64,000 bases of DNA from Pontiella sp. (GCA_050290185.1 JBNKHE010000007.1:128001-192000); one strand, 5' to 3'. Positions 21,001 through 63,000 are shown, counted from the stretch's first letter. Program-made: the numbers.

Positions 21001-24000
21001 TTCGGTCTCGCCGGGGAATCCTACGATGACGTCAGTGGTGAAGGCTGGATTGTCGAGGGCGGCACGGGCGCGTTCAACCGCGTTGTAATACTCCTCCGAG
21101 GTATAACCGCGGCGCATGGCATGCAGCACGGCGTCGGAGCCCGACTGCAGGGAGAGATGCAGGTGCGGCATGATGCTGGGCGACGAGCTCCAAACTGCCA
21201 GCAGTTCATCGGTCAGTTCAGCGGGATGGAGGCTGGAAAGCCGGATTCTTCCGATATTGGGAATCCCTGCGAGGTGCCGGAGAAGCTCTGCCAGCGACGA
21301 CCCGGATTCACGTCCGTAAAGACCGACGCTTACTCCGGTGACGACGATTTCCCTGTAGCCGGCTTCGGTCAGTACGGTAGCTTCGCGAACGGCATCTTCG
21401 ATGGTTTTATCGCGCGGCTCCTTGCGGAGTTGGGGGATGATACAAAAGGAGCAACCGATATCGCAGCCATCCTGCACCTTCAGAAAGGCGCGGGTGTGGC
21501 CGACGAAACGGGAAATGGTGAAGGTGTCGGTAGTGATGCCGGCGGTGGATATCGTGTTGGGCATTGCCAGCGAATCGAGCTGTTCGGCAAGGCGTTGGAG
21601 CCAGTCTGATCCTGCAGGAATGCGGAAGACGGGGTCCTGGTCAACCTGGGTCAGCTCGTCGTTGGCGGCGCATCCGGTTACGATGATATGGGCGAGGGGA
21701 TTGTCGCGCTGCATCCGTCGGATGGTCTGGCGCGATTTCTGGGCGGCTGCCGCCGTAACGCCGCAGGTGTGCACCACAATCAGGTCGGCATCGTCGGAAT
21801 GCGACGTTTTTTCGAGGCCGTAGCGCTCTAGAAGCTGTTCGATCTGCTGGGCATCGTACTGGTTGACTTTGCAACCCAGGACGTTCACTAAATAGGTATG
21901 AAGCTTGTTACTAGCCATTGCTGTTGAGGTGTTTGGTTTAAAAGGGGGCTTGTCTTACGCGTTCGGACTTCACGAGGCAAGCGTAAATAAATTGCGAAAC
22001 GATTGTGGGTCATTTAAACATGATTGATTCATGCGTTAAATCCAAACTGGACGAAATAACCCGGTTTGTGAAAACATGGGCATATTGTTCCGCCTGAAAA
22101 TTTTAAGAGGAGATCCAATGAAACAGGAAGATGTATTAAAGTTATTTGAGGAGACAGGCGCTTTGCTGAATGGCCATTTCGAACTTCGTTCGGGCCTGCA
22201 CAGCAATCGCTTTTTCCAGTGCGCGCTGGTATTGCAGTATCCACGTATTGCCGGCGAGCTTTGCGTGGCACTGGTGGAGAAAATGAAACAGGAACTGCAG
22301 GATCTTGAGGTCGATACGGTTATCGCGCCGGCGATGGGCGGCATTACGATCGGTCACGATGTTGCACGGGCGCTTGGCGTCCGCTTCATATTTGTTGAGA
22401 AAGAAGACAACGAGCTCAAGCTGCGGCGCTTCAAGATTCGTGACGGAGAGCGTTTTGTGGTGGCCGAAGATGTCGTGACCCGCGGAGGTCGCGTGCAGGA
22501 AACCATCGATATCGTTAAGGAAAACGGAGGTGTGGTGAAGGCCATCGGGATCCTGGTGAACCGCAGTGGCGGGAAAGCCGGTTTTGAGGCCCCGTTGGTG
22601 AGCCTGCTGGATATCGAGCCGGTCACGTACGATCCCTCCGATTGCCCGCTGTGCCGCGATGGGCTGGAACTGGTGCATCCGGGCAGTAAATAGCAAGCAT
22701 GCAGTTCCGTGTTGAGGAGGGAGTTTCGCGTATGGCGGAGCCTACCTGAAGGCGGAACTACAAACCTGTTCAATCGCTTTGACTTGTCGGATAAAAGCCG
22801 GTAAGTTGCGAGGCTTGTTTTTTAGAAAATCTAGAGGAGGTTGCCGTGTCGCATCCGTTGGAACCGATTGTCGCTTTGCAGAAGAAAGATCGTAGACTTA
22901 TTAAAATCATGCGGGAAATCCGCGACATCCCCCAGCGCAAGAATGACATCGAAGCGCAGCTGAGCGGGTCCAAGCAAAAGCTGGATATGGCGTTGGACAG
23001 CAAGAAACACACCGAGGCCGTACTTCGGGACGTCGAACTGGAGATCGAGTCCTGCAAGGAAAAGGTCACCAAGTACAAGAACCAGCAGATGGAGGCCAAG
23101 ACCAACGACCAGTACCGTGCTTTCGTCAAAGAGATCGGAGTGGTCGAGGCCGAAATCAATCAGCTAGAGGACAAGGAACTCAAGCTGATGGAGGATCTCG
23201 AGCAGGGCAAGAAGATTGTGGCCGACTGCGAAGAGCGGCTGAATACGGAAAAGGCCGGGATTGCCGATGAACTTGGTGAGCTGGATGACCGCACCAAAGA
23301 TCTGATGGAACGGCTGGAATCGCTCAAGGCGGATCGCGCCAAAGCCGCGGCACTCTGCGACAAGGCTCTGCTCCAGAAGTACACGCGCATTATGAACAAC
23401 AAGCGCGATTTTGCGGTGGTCATGGTGGAATCCGGTGTTCATTGCGGTGGATGCCACATGAAACTTCCGCCTCAGGTGATCCACGATGCGCGCAATCCGA
23501 CCAAGATTGTGGGTTGCAACTTCTGCGGGCGCATCGTCTACAATCCCGCATCGTAGATGCGGGTTGTTTTAAGTATTCGGTGTTCAGTCCCCGTGGGGAG
23601 ATTAAGCTTAACACCTAAAACCTAACAATTTTTAGCAGTCAGGGTGTATCGGTCGCTCTTCGCCACGGTGGAGGGAGGAAAGTCCGGACTCCAAAGGGCA
23701 GGACGTTCCGTGGTTAACGCGGGAACCTCTGTGCGATATCGCAGGGGATGGAAAGTGCCACAGAAATTATACCGCCCCGGCTTGCCGGGGTAAGGGTGAA
23801 ATGGTGGGGTAAGAGCCCACCGCCCCGAGGGCAACCGAGGGGGCAGGGTAAACCCCGTCCGGAGCAAGTTCAAATAGGCGGCGATGATGCGGCCCGCATC
23901 GCCAATAGTCGCGGGTTGAACGCATTAGATAAATGACCGACCCCGCAAGGGGAACAGAATCCGGCTTACCGCCCTGTCTGCTTTTTCTATTTTCAAAGTA

Positions 24001-60000: not shown

Positions 60001-63000
60001 AACGGGAGCGAGTGTGACTTAATACTCTGGGATGGGTCCACCAACACCTACGTCAACCTACTGGAGTCGTCGTCCTACGCCTCTAATAGCGACCCAACAA
60101 ATCGGTACTCATCGGTTGGAACGGGCGGAAGAATAACGACATTTGCGGCATATACCAACAACCTTCCGGTTGCGTCGGATACCAGGCTGAAGGGCTTCTT
60201 GGAGTTGCAGAAGTGAGTAAATCAGCACGTGCTTGAAAGGGGGGTATAATGCCTGAACATGTTAAGGTAAGCGCAGTGAGTGCCGTGGTCGGCGTATTCA
60301 TCACGTTCGGATCAATATTCATCGCCACCGGAAGCTACCGCCAAAAACTGGATGATACCTCCAAGGAAATTGTTCAGCACCGCGCGGATATAATTGCTTT
60401 GTATACCACGTCGAAGGGACTTGAGCACGACATCCAGGACATCAAGCAGATGCAGCAGGAATCCCGCGCGGACATAAAGACCCTGTTGATCAGAACAAAA
60501 TGATTTCCGGCAATGGGGCCGGGATTAGTGGAGGTCAAAAAATGAAGAAAAAGTTTAGCATGCTGATGGTATTGGCCGTTCTTGCCCTGGTGATGGCGGC
60601 TATGCCGTCGTTCGCCCAGGACGCGGGTGCCGAGGCCGTTGCCAGTGCATCGGATGGCGGCCTCTTGGCGTGGTTGTCCCGGAACATGGGCGCGGTGTTC
60701 GGAATCGTAACGGCAACGCTCGGGGTTCTGGCGATGGTCTGCAAGCTGACACCATCGCCGAGGGACGACGCAATCGTCGCCAAAATCCTTGGCTGGCTCA
60801 ACATGTTGCCGGTGAAAAGGCAGTAGCATGTTGAAGGCTGCTCTACTCGCATTGCAGGAGTGGCTGCACTGGCGGCGCGTCATGGCTGAGATCCAGGCGC
60901 GCCGCTTGGTTTTGACGGAGCTTGAGCGCGTCGAAAGGGAAATCGATGAAATCGAAGACGATATCGAAAAGCATCGCCGCAATGGCGATCATGCTGATGC
61001 TGACCGGTTGCTTCTCGCAATCTCGCGTAGAGCCTGTTTTGAGCGGGGGATACTTGACCTTGCGGAAGGGGCAGGTTTTCACCGCTCGGAAAGACTGCGT
61101 TTTGGTGGATCTGGAGATCGTGGAGCAGAAGGACGCGATAATCATCGATCTGATCCGGTCGCAACGGAAGCAGGAAGTGAAGCAGCTGGTTGAATGAAAG
61201 CAATTACACTGTTCATTTTAATGTCGATCACCGGATGTGCAACGCGCGTCACAACCTGCACATGGGGTCCGGATCCCGGGAAAAACATCCTCAAAAAAAC
61301 CACGGTAAGCCATTCATGGTGGCTTGGTTTGCCAGCAATTGCACCGATGGATTCATCCGTTAAAGACGGAGAGTTCCAAGTCGAAACAAGAGCAATGAAA
61401 GTCCCGGACGGATGGTTCGGCGTCTACCGGGATCAAAACTGATTTAGCTGGGCTCCTCCTCTCTCCCGGCGGCCTCCCTTGCTTCGGCGAGGGAGGTTTT
61501 TTATTTCTCAGCATTGTATATAAACGAAATATAAACGGATATATATTGAATATACGAAATACAGCGCAAAAACACCATAAAACAGCGTTTTTGATCCGAT
61601 TGTTTTAGGGTAAGAGCCCACCGCCCCAAGGGTAACCGAGGGGGCAGGGTAAACCCCGTCCGGAGCAAGATCAAATAGGGAATCGAGGAACGGCCCGTTC
61701 CGCAGGGGTTCCGGGTTGATCGCACTAGATAAATGATCGACTCCGCAAGGAGAACAGAATCCGGCTTACCGCCCTGACTGCTTTTATCCTTTTGGCAGCT
61801 TTTTTTGCTGGATCACTTCAAAGGCCAACCGCTCCAGAGCTTTGCCGTTGGGTAGATCCAGCTTGTTCTTGATATTGATGCGGTGGGTGTCGACCGTATT
61901 GCGGCTGATGTTGAGTTTTTCCCCGATGGTTATCGAGTCGTGACCTTCTCCCAACAGCTTGAAGATATCCATTTCGCGGTTGGACAGCGTGTCGAGCAGC
62001 GAATGTTTTCCCGACGTGCGACCGTTCATTTTCTTTTCGATCCGTTCCTGGATGTCGGGATGAAAGCAGAGGTTGCCGGCGAGTACGGAGCGGATGGCCT
62101 GCTTGAGCTCGGCGGGCGGCGTGGTCTTCATGACATAGCCGGTCGCCCCGGCCATTGCCGTCCGTTCCGCGAACAGACGCTCTTCGGACATCGTGTAGAC
62201 CAGCATTTTAAGTTTTGGGTAGGTGGTATGGATGCGCTGGATCAGATAAGTCCCGTCCGAGTCGCCCAGGGATAGATCAATGAGGGCCAGATCCGGCACA
62301 TCCGACTCGAGCAGCTCCATGGCTTCATTGGCCGAAAAGGCCATTCCAAGAATTTCCATATCGGGTTCGTTGGATAAGAGAATTTTCAACCCGTCATGAA
62401 TGATAGGATGATCGTCGATGACCATAACCGAATGCTTGTTGTTGTTCATAATACCCCTATCTGAACTTCAATATTCAAGAATTTATTCTTTTTGGGAGGG
62501 GAAATGAAGAGATTTCTTGCGGAAACAAAGAGAAGCGACTGGTTTTACTTTGAGCAACAGCCGGATTTTTCCCGCTCGGGAAGCAGTCCTTTCACCAGGA
62601 TGGCCACAAGTATGGCGACCCATAGGATTTGCAGGGGTCCATGGCATTCGCCCGCATGGCAAACCTGATCCATCACACCCAGCCTGGGGGTGAAAAAATT
62701 CATGGCAAAGCCAGCGGCCAGAGCGCACAACGACAATGTTGCGAGAAAGACGGCAAGTTGCTTGCGGCCAATGATCTGCCATAGCGTTGTCAGTGTTGCG
62801 GCGTTGGTTGCCGGGCCGGTTATGAGGAATACAAGCGCGGCTCCCGGTGATATGCCTGCCTTAATGAAGGCCAGTGCAATCGGAACGGATGCTGAGGAAC
62901 AGACGTAAAGCGGGATGCCGATGCCGAGCATGAGCAGCATGGCAATCGGCGAATTACCAATGGTGTTGGTGAAAAAATTATCAGGAATGAGTCCGCTGAG

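Follow-up and report, generated by a model that had tools for sequence, protein, structure and literature searches.

The locus described here raises the question of whether the only RNase P RNA gene of a bacterium can be part host and part phage. The window analyzed is a stretch of 64,000 nt from Pontiella sp. (GCA_050290185.1 JBNKHE010000007.1:128001-192000), and an earlier genome survey had proposed that a prophage in this stretch occupies the rnpB gene. We consider it highly probable that a temperate tailed phage of ~37.8 kb integrated in the 3′ half of rnpB and that the RNase P RNA is consequently a hybrid of host and phage sequence.

The RNase P RNA gene and its partial repeat

The RF00010 model (RNaseP_bact_a) matches positions 23636-23984 on the + strand with a score of 244.7 bits (gathering score 100; E 1.9e-78), and the match spans model positions 1-367 and is not truncated. 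Model positions ~283-305, which we take to be P18, are deleted in both repeat copies, so that not all RF00010 consensus helices are present. The survey had called this the sole RNase P RNA gene, and indeed just one full match exists in the genome (3.58 Mb, 95.5% complete); at E<1 the model otherwise gives just two weak partial matches, of 17.6 and 16.2 bits, both on the distal copy of the repeat. The rnpA protein gene is found elsewhere in the genome. The features of the gene are as follows.

23636..23984, + strand: rnpB, type A RNase P RNA gene, full-length RF00010 match, sole full copy
23636..23806, + strand: 171-nt 5′ part of rnpB not included in the repeat, of host origin and continuous with the host flank
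23807..23985, + strand: proximal repeat copy (attL), 3′ half of the intact gene, read as phage-borne
61608..61785, + strand: distal repeat copy (attR), lacking the 5′ 171 nt, read as the displaced host 3′ half

Positions 23807-23985 and 61608-61785 are 86% identical (E 2.3e-52), differing at 28 of 179 aligned columns, and there is no other second match genome-wide. The survey's finding that the last 178 nt of rnpB recur at the far end of the block at this identity was reproduced, and both the hairpin that it quoted and the C-G to U-A change proved real when the alignment and pairing were checked. Eight base pairs differ between the copies, seven of them on both sides, and all are standard pairs in both; the P15-17 regions have similar folds (-22.0 and -23.0 kcal/mol). 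Both copies thus look to be under selection as RNA.

Insertion between conserved neighbors

Host genes flank the block on both sides.

22846..23556, + strand: left-flank host gene, CT398-like coiled coil and C4 zinc ribbon (PF24481, PF02591)
61784..62449, - strand: right-flank host response regulator, receiver and LuxR/GerE domains, abutting the distal copy

Of the 29 relatives' loci, 27 gave a match to a homologue of the left-flank gene, which lies upstream of rnpB in those whose coordinates were compared. On the other side of rnpB, a response-regulator homologue follows 10-96 nt after the gene in 20 of the 29 loci, and the next gene, an ArsP permease, 16-136 nt after it in 3 further loci; in the window both genes come after the distal copy. 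None of the 29 loci carries the integrase. The adjacency of rnpB and response regulator in relatives, together with this absence, argues for an insertion; direct repeats (attL and attR) lie at its ends, and its uninterrupted site is seen in 20 (plus 3) of the 29 loci. These empty sites support the survey's placement of a phage in rnpB. The survey had also pointed to a relative (G336) with two copies on two contigs; in the present set of relatives, whose handles differ from the survey's, such pairs (G010 and G018) were rejected as prophage ends, being duplicate or overlapping contigs of one locus.

Gene content of the block

Between the repeat copies lie 37.8 kb resembling a complete tailed-phage genome, with the tyrosine integrase first and a lambda-like gene order from integrase to tail. 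Of its 48 ORFs, 16 have a Pfam match and 20 a PHROG match.

24057..25130, + strand: tyrosine integrase, 357 aa (PF00589, phrog_1), 72 nt after rnpB
25140..26696, - strand: leftward regulators, WYL-domain protein (25140-25694) and HTH_3 repressor-like protein (26301-26696) (Pfam/PHROGs)
29123..32804, + strand: C5 cytosine methylase, N6/N4 methylase and peptide deformylase (Pfam/PHROGs)
40203..46581, + strand: packaging and head genes, namely small terminase, GpA-type large terminase, lambda-type portal, S49 protease and major capsid
50482..60216, + strand: tail genes, namely tape measure (775 aa), NlpC/P60 minor tail protein, 842-aa tail protein and 717-aa protein with SASA and Laminin_G_3 domains

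Integrase, terminase, portal, capsid and tail genes are therefore found in a single block. Every core gene named is a full-length ORF and no gene is obviously broken. All of the phage functions listed in the survey (regulators, methylases, deformylase, terminase, portal, capsid, tail) were matched again, and PHROGs additionally assigns the small terminase, the tape measure (the 775-aa ORF) and the 842-aa tail protein. Excisionase, holin, endolysin or any other lysis gene was not recognized among the ORFs of the block with Pfam and PHROGs, and a search of 52 genus relatives gave no related terminase at E<=1e-30.

The integrase and the target sites of its relatives

The integrase ORF starts 72 bp past rnpB, as the survey had noted, and matches PF00589 with 5.3e-14 and 52.8 bits (cut-off 27.1) and phrog_1 with 2.5e-43. 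Residues R217, K240, H307, R310 and W309 are invariant in 10 integrase relatives, and W333 and Y342 nearly so. The protein thus combines the domain match with conserved R, K, H-x-x-R, H/W and Y positions, which we take to be the catalytic residues of a tyrosine recombinase.

The relatives of this integrase typically sit 3′ of a same-strand tRNA or tmRNA gene or of a 3′ fragment of one. A same-strand tRNA gene lies 63-171 nt upstream of the integrase match in 12 of 26 relatives' loci, and a tmRNA or tRNA 3′ fragment was recognized by eye in 8 more. Seven of these fragments read towards the integrase gene and start at or just before a 7-nt loop; the fragment in L063 is reversed. No rnpB-like sequence was found in the 26 loci, and nowhere in the sequences searched was the same integrase found adjoining rnpB. 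Conversely, the window contains neither tRNA nor tmRNA, so that the target here, rnpB, lies outside the habit of these relatives. The closest relative (G007, 58% identity) targets the T-arm of a tRNA-Leu gene, with the dyad GTGGG-N7-CCCAC, and its element is bounded by a 40-nt repeat whose copies are separated by 38.3 kb. The start of that repeat coincides with the T-arm TGTGGG-TTCGAAT-CCCAC, and the start of the rnpB repeat falls inside GGTGGG-GTAAGAG-CCCACC.

A proposed crossover site and mechanism

The hairpin at the left edge of the rnpB repeat has the same stem as the tRNA-Leu T-arm targeted in G007, and its loop is likewise 7 nt. The dyad GTGGG-N7-CCCAC occurs at only 5 places in the genome, and the 14-mer spanning the hairpin loop exactly twice. 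Since the repeat begins in a hairpin with the G007 T-arm stem and a 7-nt loop, the crossover is likely to have occurred at or near the GTAAGAG loop, as judged from sequence. Candidate arm-type sites may be recognized in the segment between rnpB and the integrase gene; one 10-mer and four copies of ATAAACG are common to both phage arms.

23804..23820, no strand: hairpin GTGGG-GTAAGAG-CCCAC spanning the left repeat boundary, proposed as core site; putative crossover region, its 7-bp loop
23986..24056, no strand: phage arm from rnpB to the integrase gene, with ATAAACGC twice, 11 nt apart, and ATTGAATATA
61443..61607, no strand: right-end phage arm, with a terminator-like hairpin, TATAAACG twice, and ATTGAATATA

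Under the proposed mechanism, attP would carry ~175 nt of rnpB homology, stretching from the hairpin loop as far as the T-run at the 3′ end, directly upstream of the integrase gene. Recombination between the chromosomal rnpB and attP would occur in or close to the 7-nt loop of the hairpin at 23804-23820, which, as DNA, resembles the T-arm used by the closest relative of the integrase. The resulting attL would join the host 5′ 171-180 nt to the phage 3′ half and form the only intact RNase P RNA gene, and attR would join the phage end to the displaced host 3′ half next to the host response-regulator gene. The hybrid should work as a ribozyme because the phage half keeps every helix despite the 28 differing columns of 179. 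The sole RNase P ribozyme of the bacterium is most likely a natural host-phage hybrid on these sequence grounds, and we infer an active hybrid RNA and a prophage still able to excise. Activity of the RNA would agree, indirectly, with its being the sole rnpB product, with the presence of rnpA and with 32 of 33 long-range pairs being intact.

Which copy is native

The 5′ part of rnpB and the repeat are joined by 33 long-range pairs, of which 32 are intact, the sole break being P1 23639-23977 (U·U). The A at 61777 in the distal copy would give a U-A pair with U23639. The same P1 position is paired in all 27 relatives compared (20 G-C, 4 A-U, 3 G-U), and a 5′-side U or a 3′-side A occurs in none of the 27. 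Because the U·U mismatch becomes U-A with the distal base, the distal copy appears native and the 3′ part of the gene foreign, and the sequence evidence supports the proximal, integrase-side half as the phage's copy. The survey had made the same assignment, which now draws on the P1 U-A pair, the habit of the integrase relatives and two rnpB clades. The case for this direction of exchange depends on one base pair plus analogy.

The sequences nearest to the proximal copy are those of G006 (93-94%) and G076 (92%), and those nearest to the distal copy are G011 (92.7%) and G035 (92.0%). In the tree the proximal copy groups with G029, G006 and G001 (99/97) and the distal copy with G035 and G011 (94/90). 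A sister relationship of the two copies is rejected with p-AU 0.0011; here as in the other AU tests, the groups were named after the trees were seen, and paired RNA columns are not independent. Flanking proteins put the host with G011, G006 and G035. Although G006 is among the three nearest relatives by flanking proteins, it has a proximal-type 3′ half at an empty site, and because that half occurs there without a prophage, phylogenetic typing alone cannot name the native type.

Alternative explanations

The same prophage could have entered by a crossover near the 3′ end or in the middle of the repeat, in which case host sequence would make up nearly all of the intact gene and phage sequence most of the distal copy. 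Identical stretches of at least 7 nt do exist further right (23833-23868, 23926-23936 and 23952-23976), and the close, prophage-free relative G006 has the proximal-type half. One attP-like public contig (Logan; run X2, record 12) also speaks for this: it enters the repeat at 23807 from non-host sequence, runs on into the integrase gene, and has at 23832 a T, the distal-type letter (one of 14 differences, the position of the 14th not being given). Such a T would be compatible with a crossover in 23833-23868 or with a graph chimera. However, the U·U versus U-A pattern at P1 sets the crossover left of 23977, and pairs that are self-consistent in both copies rule out 23869-23920 and 23942-23951. 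Moreover, the integrase-side RNA fragment in relatives begins at the crossover hairpin and not far upstream of it, and a phage recombining further right would carry 120-170 nt of rnpB homology without a gene-restoring role. A crossover of this kind is accordingly judged improbable.

Still less credible is an assembly artefact, in which a free or plasmid-like phage with an rnpB-like attP was threaded into a host contig and the host rnpB is intact and native. The window does come from a 163-contig draft, and the integrated state rests on the assembly, since none of the public Logan contigs found bridges attL. Those with 0 differences carry the host flank to 23724, 23732 or 23823 (records 5, 9, 17 and 30), and the X2 contig enters at 23807 from non-host sequence. 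Against this, an artefact would require a mis-join at each of the two junctions, within a shared 20 nt (23807-23826), even though the copies differ at 28 columns, and the contig runs 23.6 kb leftward in host genes and rightward into the same genes that follow rnpB in relatives. The public contigs also break within rnpB segments that are conserved between species, at which a k-mer graph branches in any case.

A prophage integrated as described may instead have become fixed and no longer inducible, the hybrid gene being an old, stable allele. This we regard as unlikely, though a good deal less so than the other two. It would agree with the unrecognized excisionase, holin and endolysin, with the lack of a related terminase in the genus relatives, and with the failure to find the same integrase beside rnpB. 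The full-length core genes, the conserved catalytic motif of the integrase, the RNA pairing kept in both att copies, the variants of the integrase region in public contigs (1-2% different) and the one attP-like junction weigh against it.

Comparison with known systems

Integration into tRNA genes is said to have been divided into sublocation classes by Williams in 2002, with crossover in the T-loop or the anticodon loop. Our preferred reading, integration at the rnpB hairpin, shares with prophages and islands at tRNA 3′ ends an integrase gene directly downstream of the restored RNA gene, a direct repeat at the far end, and an attP with the 3′ part of the gene from a 7-nt hairpin loop to the end. 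The integrase itself belongs to a tRNA-targeting family, as indicated by the tRNA gene immediately upstream in 12 of 26 loci. The target, in contrast, is rnpB; the restored segment is ~175 nt, half a ribozyme, compared with 40 nt in G007; and the repeat copies are 86% identical, compared with 100% in G007. Elements in the tmRNA gene (ssrA) similarly use a stable RNA gene other than a tRNA gene as attB and restore its 3′ end, and integrase relatives at 45-55% identity adjoin a fragment matching the tmRNA of the Pontiella genome studied here from T-loop to 3′ end. tmRNA terminates in a genuine tRNA-like domain, whereas the likeness of the rnpB hairpin to a T-arm is limited to stem sequence and loop length.

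A precedent for diverged att copies, one of them wholly element-borne, is Tn7088 of Lactobacillus crispatus M247. Its att copies, sequenced experimentally, differ by many changes; attL equals the site of the circular form, attR corresponds to the restored attB, and the terminal part of a tRNA gene lies within the site (PMC10763512). As described there, Tn7088 differs in being a small mobilizable element that involves 11 nt of a tRNA-Thr gene and no ribozyme (PMC10763512).

Wider occurrence and related phages

Literature searches found no published use of rnpB as an attachment site, key integration-site surveys lying outside their scope. The proximal-type half in G006, G001 and G029 could be the footprint of past lysogeny, such that phage-borne rnpB halves cross species and persist; we offer this tentatively and think it rather unlikely. 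Prophage loss would then have occurred, for example, by recombination between diverged repeats. The suggestion arises because the proximal type conflicts with the flanking genes or 5′ halves of these relatives. For the 3′ half, grouping G006 with the clade of its own flanking proteins is rejected (p-AU 0.0023); for the flanking proteins, a G006 and G029 clade is rejected (p-AU 0.0031); and the 5′ half of G001 groups with G009 (84/84) and its 3′ half with the phage type (99/97). An equally simple alternative has the phage acquiring its half by copying from an earlier host that resembled G006. If the footprint explanation were true, phages would reshuffle modules of an essential ribozyme across the genus.

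The survey's suggestion of a first prophage for Kiritimatiellales found no support, as an integrase relative adjoins tRNA-Met in a record titled Kiritimatiellae bacterium and a survey of Verrucomicrobia prophages has been published. That survey tabulates such prophages and has 17 occurrences of Kiritimatiell- names (PMC6920513). The nearest deposited phage by large terminase is Verrucomicrobia phage P8625, yet at 25.9% identity. Much closer is a 39-kb IMG/VR contig (IMGVR_UViG_3300040801_004080, G089) that has 24 of the 48 ORFs in the same order. Unlike the prophage described here, it carries a large serine recombinase beside the WYL gene in place of the tyrosine integrase, and no rnpB piece. 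Its five named packaging and head proteins are 66-78% identical to those of the block (large terminase 70%, capsid 78%), and other ORFs in that interval are 56-59% identical.

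The rnpB gene and its partial repeat

The gene for the RNA of RNase P (rnpB) matches the type-A Rfam model over its whole length (244.7 bits, E 1.9e-78) and is the single full match in the genome (3.58 Mb, 95.5% complete), with rnpA, the gene of the protein subunit, located on another contig (G000:C1:552223-552546). The terminal 178–179 nt of the gene recur once at 86% identity, with differences in 28 of 179 aligned columns and a divergence of 14–16%. A tyrosine integrase of 357 aa (PF00589, phrog_1) begins 72 nt 3' of rnpB, and the window contains no tRNA or tmRNA genes. The survey's finding of a sole full gene followed closely by an integrase, with its last 178 nt repeated, is borne out in all of these points.

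23636–23984, + strand, RNase P RNA gene (rnpB)
23807–23985, proximal copy of the repeat (attL), the 3' half of the intact gene
24057–25130, tyrosine integrase gene
61608–61785, distal copy of the repeat (attR)
61784–62449, response-regulator gene of the right host flank

Across the order, rnpB is matched in 80 of 89 genomes and matched twice in four, namely the genome under study (G000), G010, G018, and G045; among these four, both matches lie on one contig in G000 only. The survey had also mentioned a relative with two copies on two contigs; in G010 and G018 the second copies are duplicate or overlapping contigs of one locus each. A helix at Rfam model positions about 283–305, which we take to be P18, is missing from both copies of the repeat (window 23925–23934 region).

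Insertion of a prophage into rnpB

The rnpB loci of 29 relatives were compared. A homologue of the response regulator lies 10–96 nt past rnpB in 20 of the 29 loci, and an ArsP permease, the next host gene, lies 16–136 nt past it in three others; the remaining six comprise three from another family with a different neighbourhood, two without a match, and one cut by a contig end. None of the 29 loci has an integrase homologue, and the upstream phosphoribosyltransferase and CT398-like zinc-ribbon genes are syntenic throughout. Relative to these neighbourhoods, the window has 37.8 kb of additional DNA precisely where rnpB would otherwise meet its usual neighbour, with a repeat copy at either end, which supports an insertion into rnpB. 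The CT398-like coiled-coil and zinc-ribbon gene (22846–23556) is found directly 5' of rnpB in 27 of the 29 loci and in G045, and hence in both families, so that the gene order is conserved here.

Pfam and PHROG matches confirm the tailed-phage gene set reported between the two copies. The integrase is followed by leftward WYL and HTH regulators, two DNA methylases, and a peptide deformylase, then by small and large (GpA-type) terminases, a lambda-type portal, an S49 protease, and a capsid protein, and finally by a 775-aa tape measure, an NlpC/P60 minor tail protein, an 842-aa tail protein, and a 717-aa SASA/Laminin_G_3 protein. Empty sites, repeat, and gene content together bear out the claim that rnpB is interrupted by an integrated temperate phage. 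Pfam matches were obtained for 16 of the 48 prophage ORFs and PHROG matches for 20. The R, K, H-x-x-R, W, and Y positions of the integrase are kept, and no excisionase or lysis genes were recognised among the 48 ORFs; that the prophage is no longer inducible is a possibility worth bearing in mind, if an unlikely one.

Several smaller features of the block may be recorded here. The peptide deformylase gene (32346–32804; PF01327, 1.5e-24) lies between the two DNA methylase genes. A 33-nt motif (CTTTCACCACAGAGGGCACAGAG...) occurs four times in the early region (27763–27795, 32300–32332, 35998–36030, and 36490–36522), and its copies may be regulatory sites or terminators. An 87-nt tandem duplication (57759–57932, 87% identity) lies inside a 145-aa ORF (57592–58029) between the genes of the 842-aa tail protein and the 717-aa SASA/Laminin_G_3 protein, and a 67-nt repeat is present at 46849 and 47029 inside the 202-aa ORF next after the capsid gene.

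Attachment-site layout in the integrase family

Relatives of the integrase were collected from the genus, GTDB genomes, IMG/VR, and metagenomes, and 26 loci were scanned. Twelve of these have a tRNA gene on the same strand, 63–171 nt upstream of the integrase match; six of the tRNAs are Met-CAT, two are Ser, and the others are Leu-GAG, Leu-TAG, Pro, and Gly. At one of the Ser loci only the C-terminal end of the integrase is present. Inspection by eye, from which L054, L056, and L086 were left out, revealed a 3' fragment alone beside the integrase gene at eight more loci. In five of them (L047, L048, L064, L055, and L063, with integrases of 45–55% identity) the fragment matches the T-loop-to-CCA end of the tmRNA of G000 itself, reversed in L063, and the fragments of L066, L067, and L077 are 3' portions of tRNAs; L074 has no RNA fragment recognisable by eye beside its integrase gene. 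Searches of the relatives' loci by blastn, and of ten by cmscan, found no rnpB-like sequence. The tRNA genes and fragments indicate that the order RNA 3' fragment, short spacer, integrase gene is the attP layout of this family, and the window displays the same layout with an rnpB fragment.

The closest relative, an integrase of 58% identity in G007, is encoded 105 nt 3' of a tRNA-Leu(GAG) gene. Its element (G007:C2:124105-162493; L040, L108) is bracketed by a 40-nt, 100% identical repeat, the copies of which are 38.3 kb apart, extending from the T-arm TGTGGG-TTCGAAT-CCCAC to 11 nt beyond CCA. The large terminase of this element is unrelated to that of the window at E<=1e-30.

Origin of the two copies

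A consensus structure was derived from 28 sequences, and all pairs joining the unique 5' part of rnpB to the repeat were listed. In the actual gene 32 of these 33 pairs are standard. The exception is the P1 pair 23639–23977, which is U·U and would be U-A with the base of the distal copy. The position is paired in all 27 relatives (20 G-C, 4 A-U, and 3 G-U), and neither a 5'-side U nor a 3'-side A occurs in any of them. This compensated, lineage-specific pair connects the distal copy with the resident 5' half, indicating that the 3' end of the intact gene is foreign and that the crossover lies left of 23977. The evidence therefore supports the assignment of the proximal 3' half of the intact gene to the phage and of the distal copy to the displaced host half; the claim that the phage brings its own version of the 3' half of rnpB is supported by the P1 pair together with the attP layout of the integrase family.

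The copies also differ at eight other pairs (23869/23920, two sets of three in the 23879–23911 hairpin, and 23942/23951), and seven are changed on both sides, in agreement with the paired compensatory changes noted in the survey. All eight are standard in both copies, which indicates that both were shaped as working RNA; the crossover cannot have fallen between the members of any of them, since both parents would then have had mismatched pairs. The P15–17 regions have the same predicted fold (−22.0 and −23.0 kcal/mol). Whole-molecule folding did not discriminate between the copies (−151.7 kcal/mol for the actual gene and −153.8 kcal/mol for an in silico fusion of the 5' half with the distal copy).

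In the tree of 3' halves the proximal copy groups with G029, G006, and G001 (99/97) and the distal copy with G035 and G011 (94/90, then 86/75). A sister relationship of the two copies is rejected (p-AU 0.0011), so that by their sequences they appear to stem from different rnpB lineages. Three proteins encoded in the flanks (650 columns, 19 taxa) yield a tree that places the host with G011 and G006 (89/88), then with G035 (99/98). The distal-type half is thus present in two of the three nearest relatives, and the third, G006, has an empty site of the proximal type; the direction of the exchange is therefore not argued from phylogeny. Identity was likewise discarded as a guide to the native copy, the genomes closest in the 5' half (G026 and G027) being about equally near to both copies (88.5–89.9%). 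The 5'-half tree is nearly unresolved, with 17 of 26 branches open.

Proposed crossover and alternative explanations

The rnpB repeat starts within GGTGGG-GTAAGAG-CCCACC, which has the same five-base stem arms as the G007 T-arm and a 7-nt loop; the hairpin GTGGG-GTAAGAG-CCCAC is presumably P13 on the E. coli helix map. The genome has five instances of the dyad GTGGG-N7-CCCAC, among them the rnpB hairpin and a T-arm, and the 14-mer that spans the loop is confined to the two att copies. Because the dyad is shared with the G007 T-arm and coincides with the repeat edge, it is proposed that the loop GTAAGAG would serve as a 7-bp overlap and the GTGGG/CCCAC stem arms as core sites. If the loop is the crossover, about 170–178 of the 349 nt of the ribozyme would be phage-supplied, a part in which we place one P4 core strand together with the loop binding the tRNA CCA end. 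Common to the two phage arms are the 10-mer ATTGAATATA and the motif ATAAACG, which is present in four copies, two of them 11 nt apart just upstream of the integrase gene; paired direct repeats are seen by eye at the same place in integrase relatives, and these shared motifs are candidate arm sites.

A crossover near the 3' end of rnpB would leave the ribozyme almost entirely of host origin. Both the P1 pair and the attP layout of the integrase family disfavour such an exchange, and it is considered very unlikely. One public Logan contig of 5,817 nt (run X2, record 12) matches the window only in its last 760 letters (23807 to 24566). The match begins exactly at the left edge of the repeat and the preceding 5,057 letters do not lie on the host side, a resemblance to an attP junction that is only a hint. 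Of its 14 differences 13 can be placed, 12 in the integrase gene and one, C>T at 23832, giving the distal-type letter; accordingly a crossover within 23833–23868, or a graph chimera, is also conceivable.

An assembly artefact would require two mis-joins at a shared 20-mer and is highly improbable. Four public runs from a single study, all examined as Logan contigs, contain 71–79% of the sampled attL-region words. Host-side contigs have 0 differences and end at 23724, 23732, or 23823, and phage-side contigs, which begin at 23912 or 23952, show 1–2% difference from the window in the integrase gene. No contig among those of the four runs bridges attL, from which nothing follows, since the contigs break within conserved parts of rnpB. 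The depth of host and phage pieces varies between runs; contig depth is no valid measure, and nothing is drawn from it.

Related phages and known systems

Among deposited phages, Verrucomicrobia phage P8625 has the closest large terminase (25.9% identity). A 39-kb IMG/VR contig (G089, IMGVR_UViG_3300040801_004080) has 24 of the 48 ORFs in common in the same order, and its packaging and head proteins (terminases, portal, protease, and capsid) are 66–78% identical to those of the window phage, with 70% for the terminase and 78% for the capsid. In the position of the tyrosine integrase, adjoining the WYL gene, it encodes a large serine recombinase:

L106 18624–20000, serine recombinase of G089 (domain matches Resolvase, Recombinase, and Zn_ribbon_recom)

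Neither an rnpB piece nor an integrase of the window type is present in G089, indicating that the use of rnpB is tied to the integrase module and not to the phage backbone. The integration module is swappable, as a comparison of G089 with the window cleanly illustrates. For attP, IMG/VR was scanned twice for exact patterns from conserved stretches of rnpB, with 0 hits; blastn of the rnpB fragment with its flank gave none among 50,697 phage records, and the 842-aa tail protein has no match in IMG/VR. The claim of a first prophage for Kiritimatiellales looks weak.

That site-specific integration can regenerate a stable RNA gene's 3' end is textbook knowledge for tRNA and tmRNA genes. The principle, in which the attP of a tyrosine integrase contains the 3' part of such a gene and integration restores the gene, is well known; here, in contrast to tRNA- and tmRNA-targeting elements, the target is the RNase P ribozyme. 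The restored piece is about 175 nt, or half of a 349-nt catalytic RNA, as compared with 40 nt in G007, and it is 14–16% diverged from what it replaces, whereas the G007 repeat is 100% identical. Diverged att copies, one wholly element-borne, have been shown experimentally for Tn7088 (PMC10763512). The full-text literature searched yielded no report of rnpB as an attachment site; the TIGER/Islander announcement names only tRNA/tmRNA, CDS, and intergenic target classes, and survey tables outside this search may still conceal rnpB. The comparison with G007 offers a testable picture of integrase target change, in which T-arm-like GTGGG/CCCAC arms are kept, the 7-bp overlap differs, and attP holds a new gene fragment.

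Possible mosaic rnpB genes in relatives

The three genomes whose 3' halves group with the phage-type copy, G001 (L012), G006 (L017), and G029 (L025), are prophage-free. The 5' half of G001 groups with G009 (84/84), and the flanking proteins of G006 group with those of G011 and G000. The proximal-type half conflicts with the flanking genes or the 5' halves in these three genomes (p-AU 0.0023 and 0.0031, with groups named post hoc), and their rnpB genes look like mosaics. It is rather doubtful that the proximal-type half is the footprint of past lysogeny; were it so, phages would be moving half-genes of an essential ribozyme from one species to another. It is just as conceivable that the phage acquired its half by copying from a host resembling G006, G001, or G029. 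The locus amounts to a natural experiment on the ease with which modules of RNase P RNA can be exchanged between lineages, and it serves as a warning that halves of phage origin can mislead phylogenies based on rnpB.

A separate observation concerns G045, from another family of the same order, in which the genome's own rnpB has its 3' end present a second time as a 73-nt copy (98.6% identity):

G045:C33:46334-46407 (L060 6335–6407) and G045:C20 (L062), the G045 loci

The copy lies 3' of GH38 mannosidase and HAD hydrolase genes, 250 nt from a contig end. The full gene is followed by tRNA-Thr on the opposite strand and a secretin gene, and three relatives have tRNA-Arg(TCT) at that place. No integrase was seen at the G045 rnpB loci, and the copy may represent a second event, distinct from the first, that affected the 3' end of this gene.
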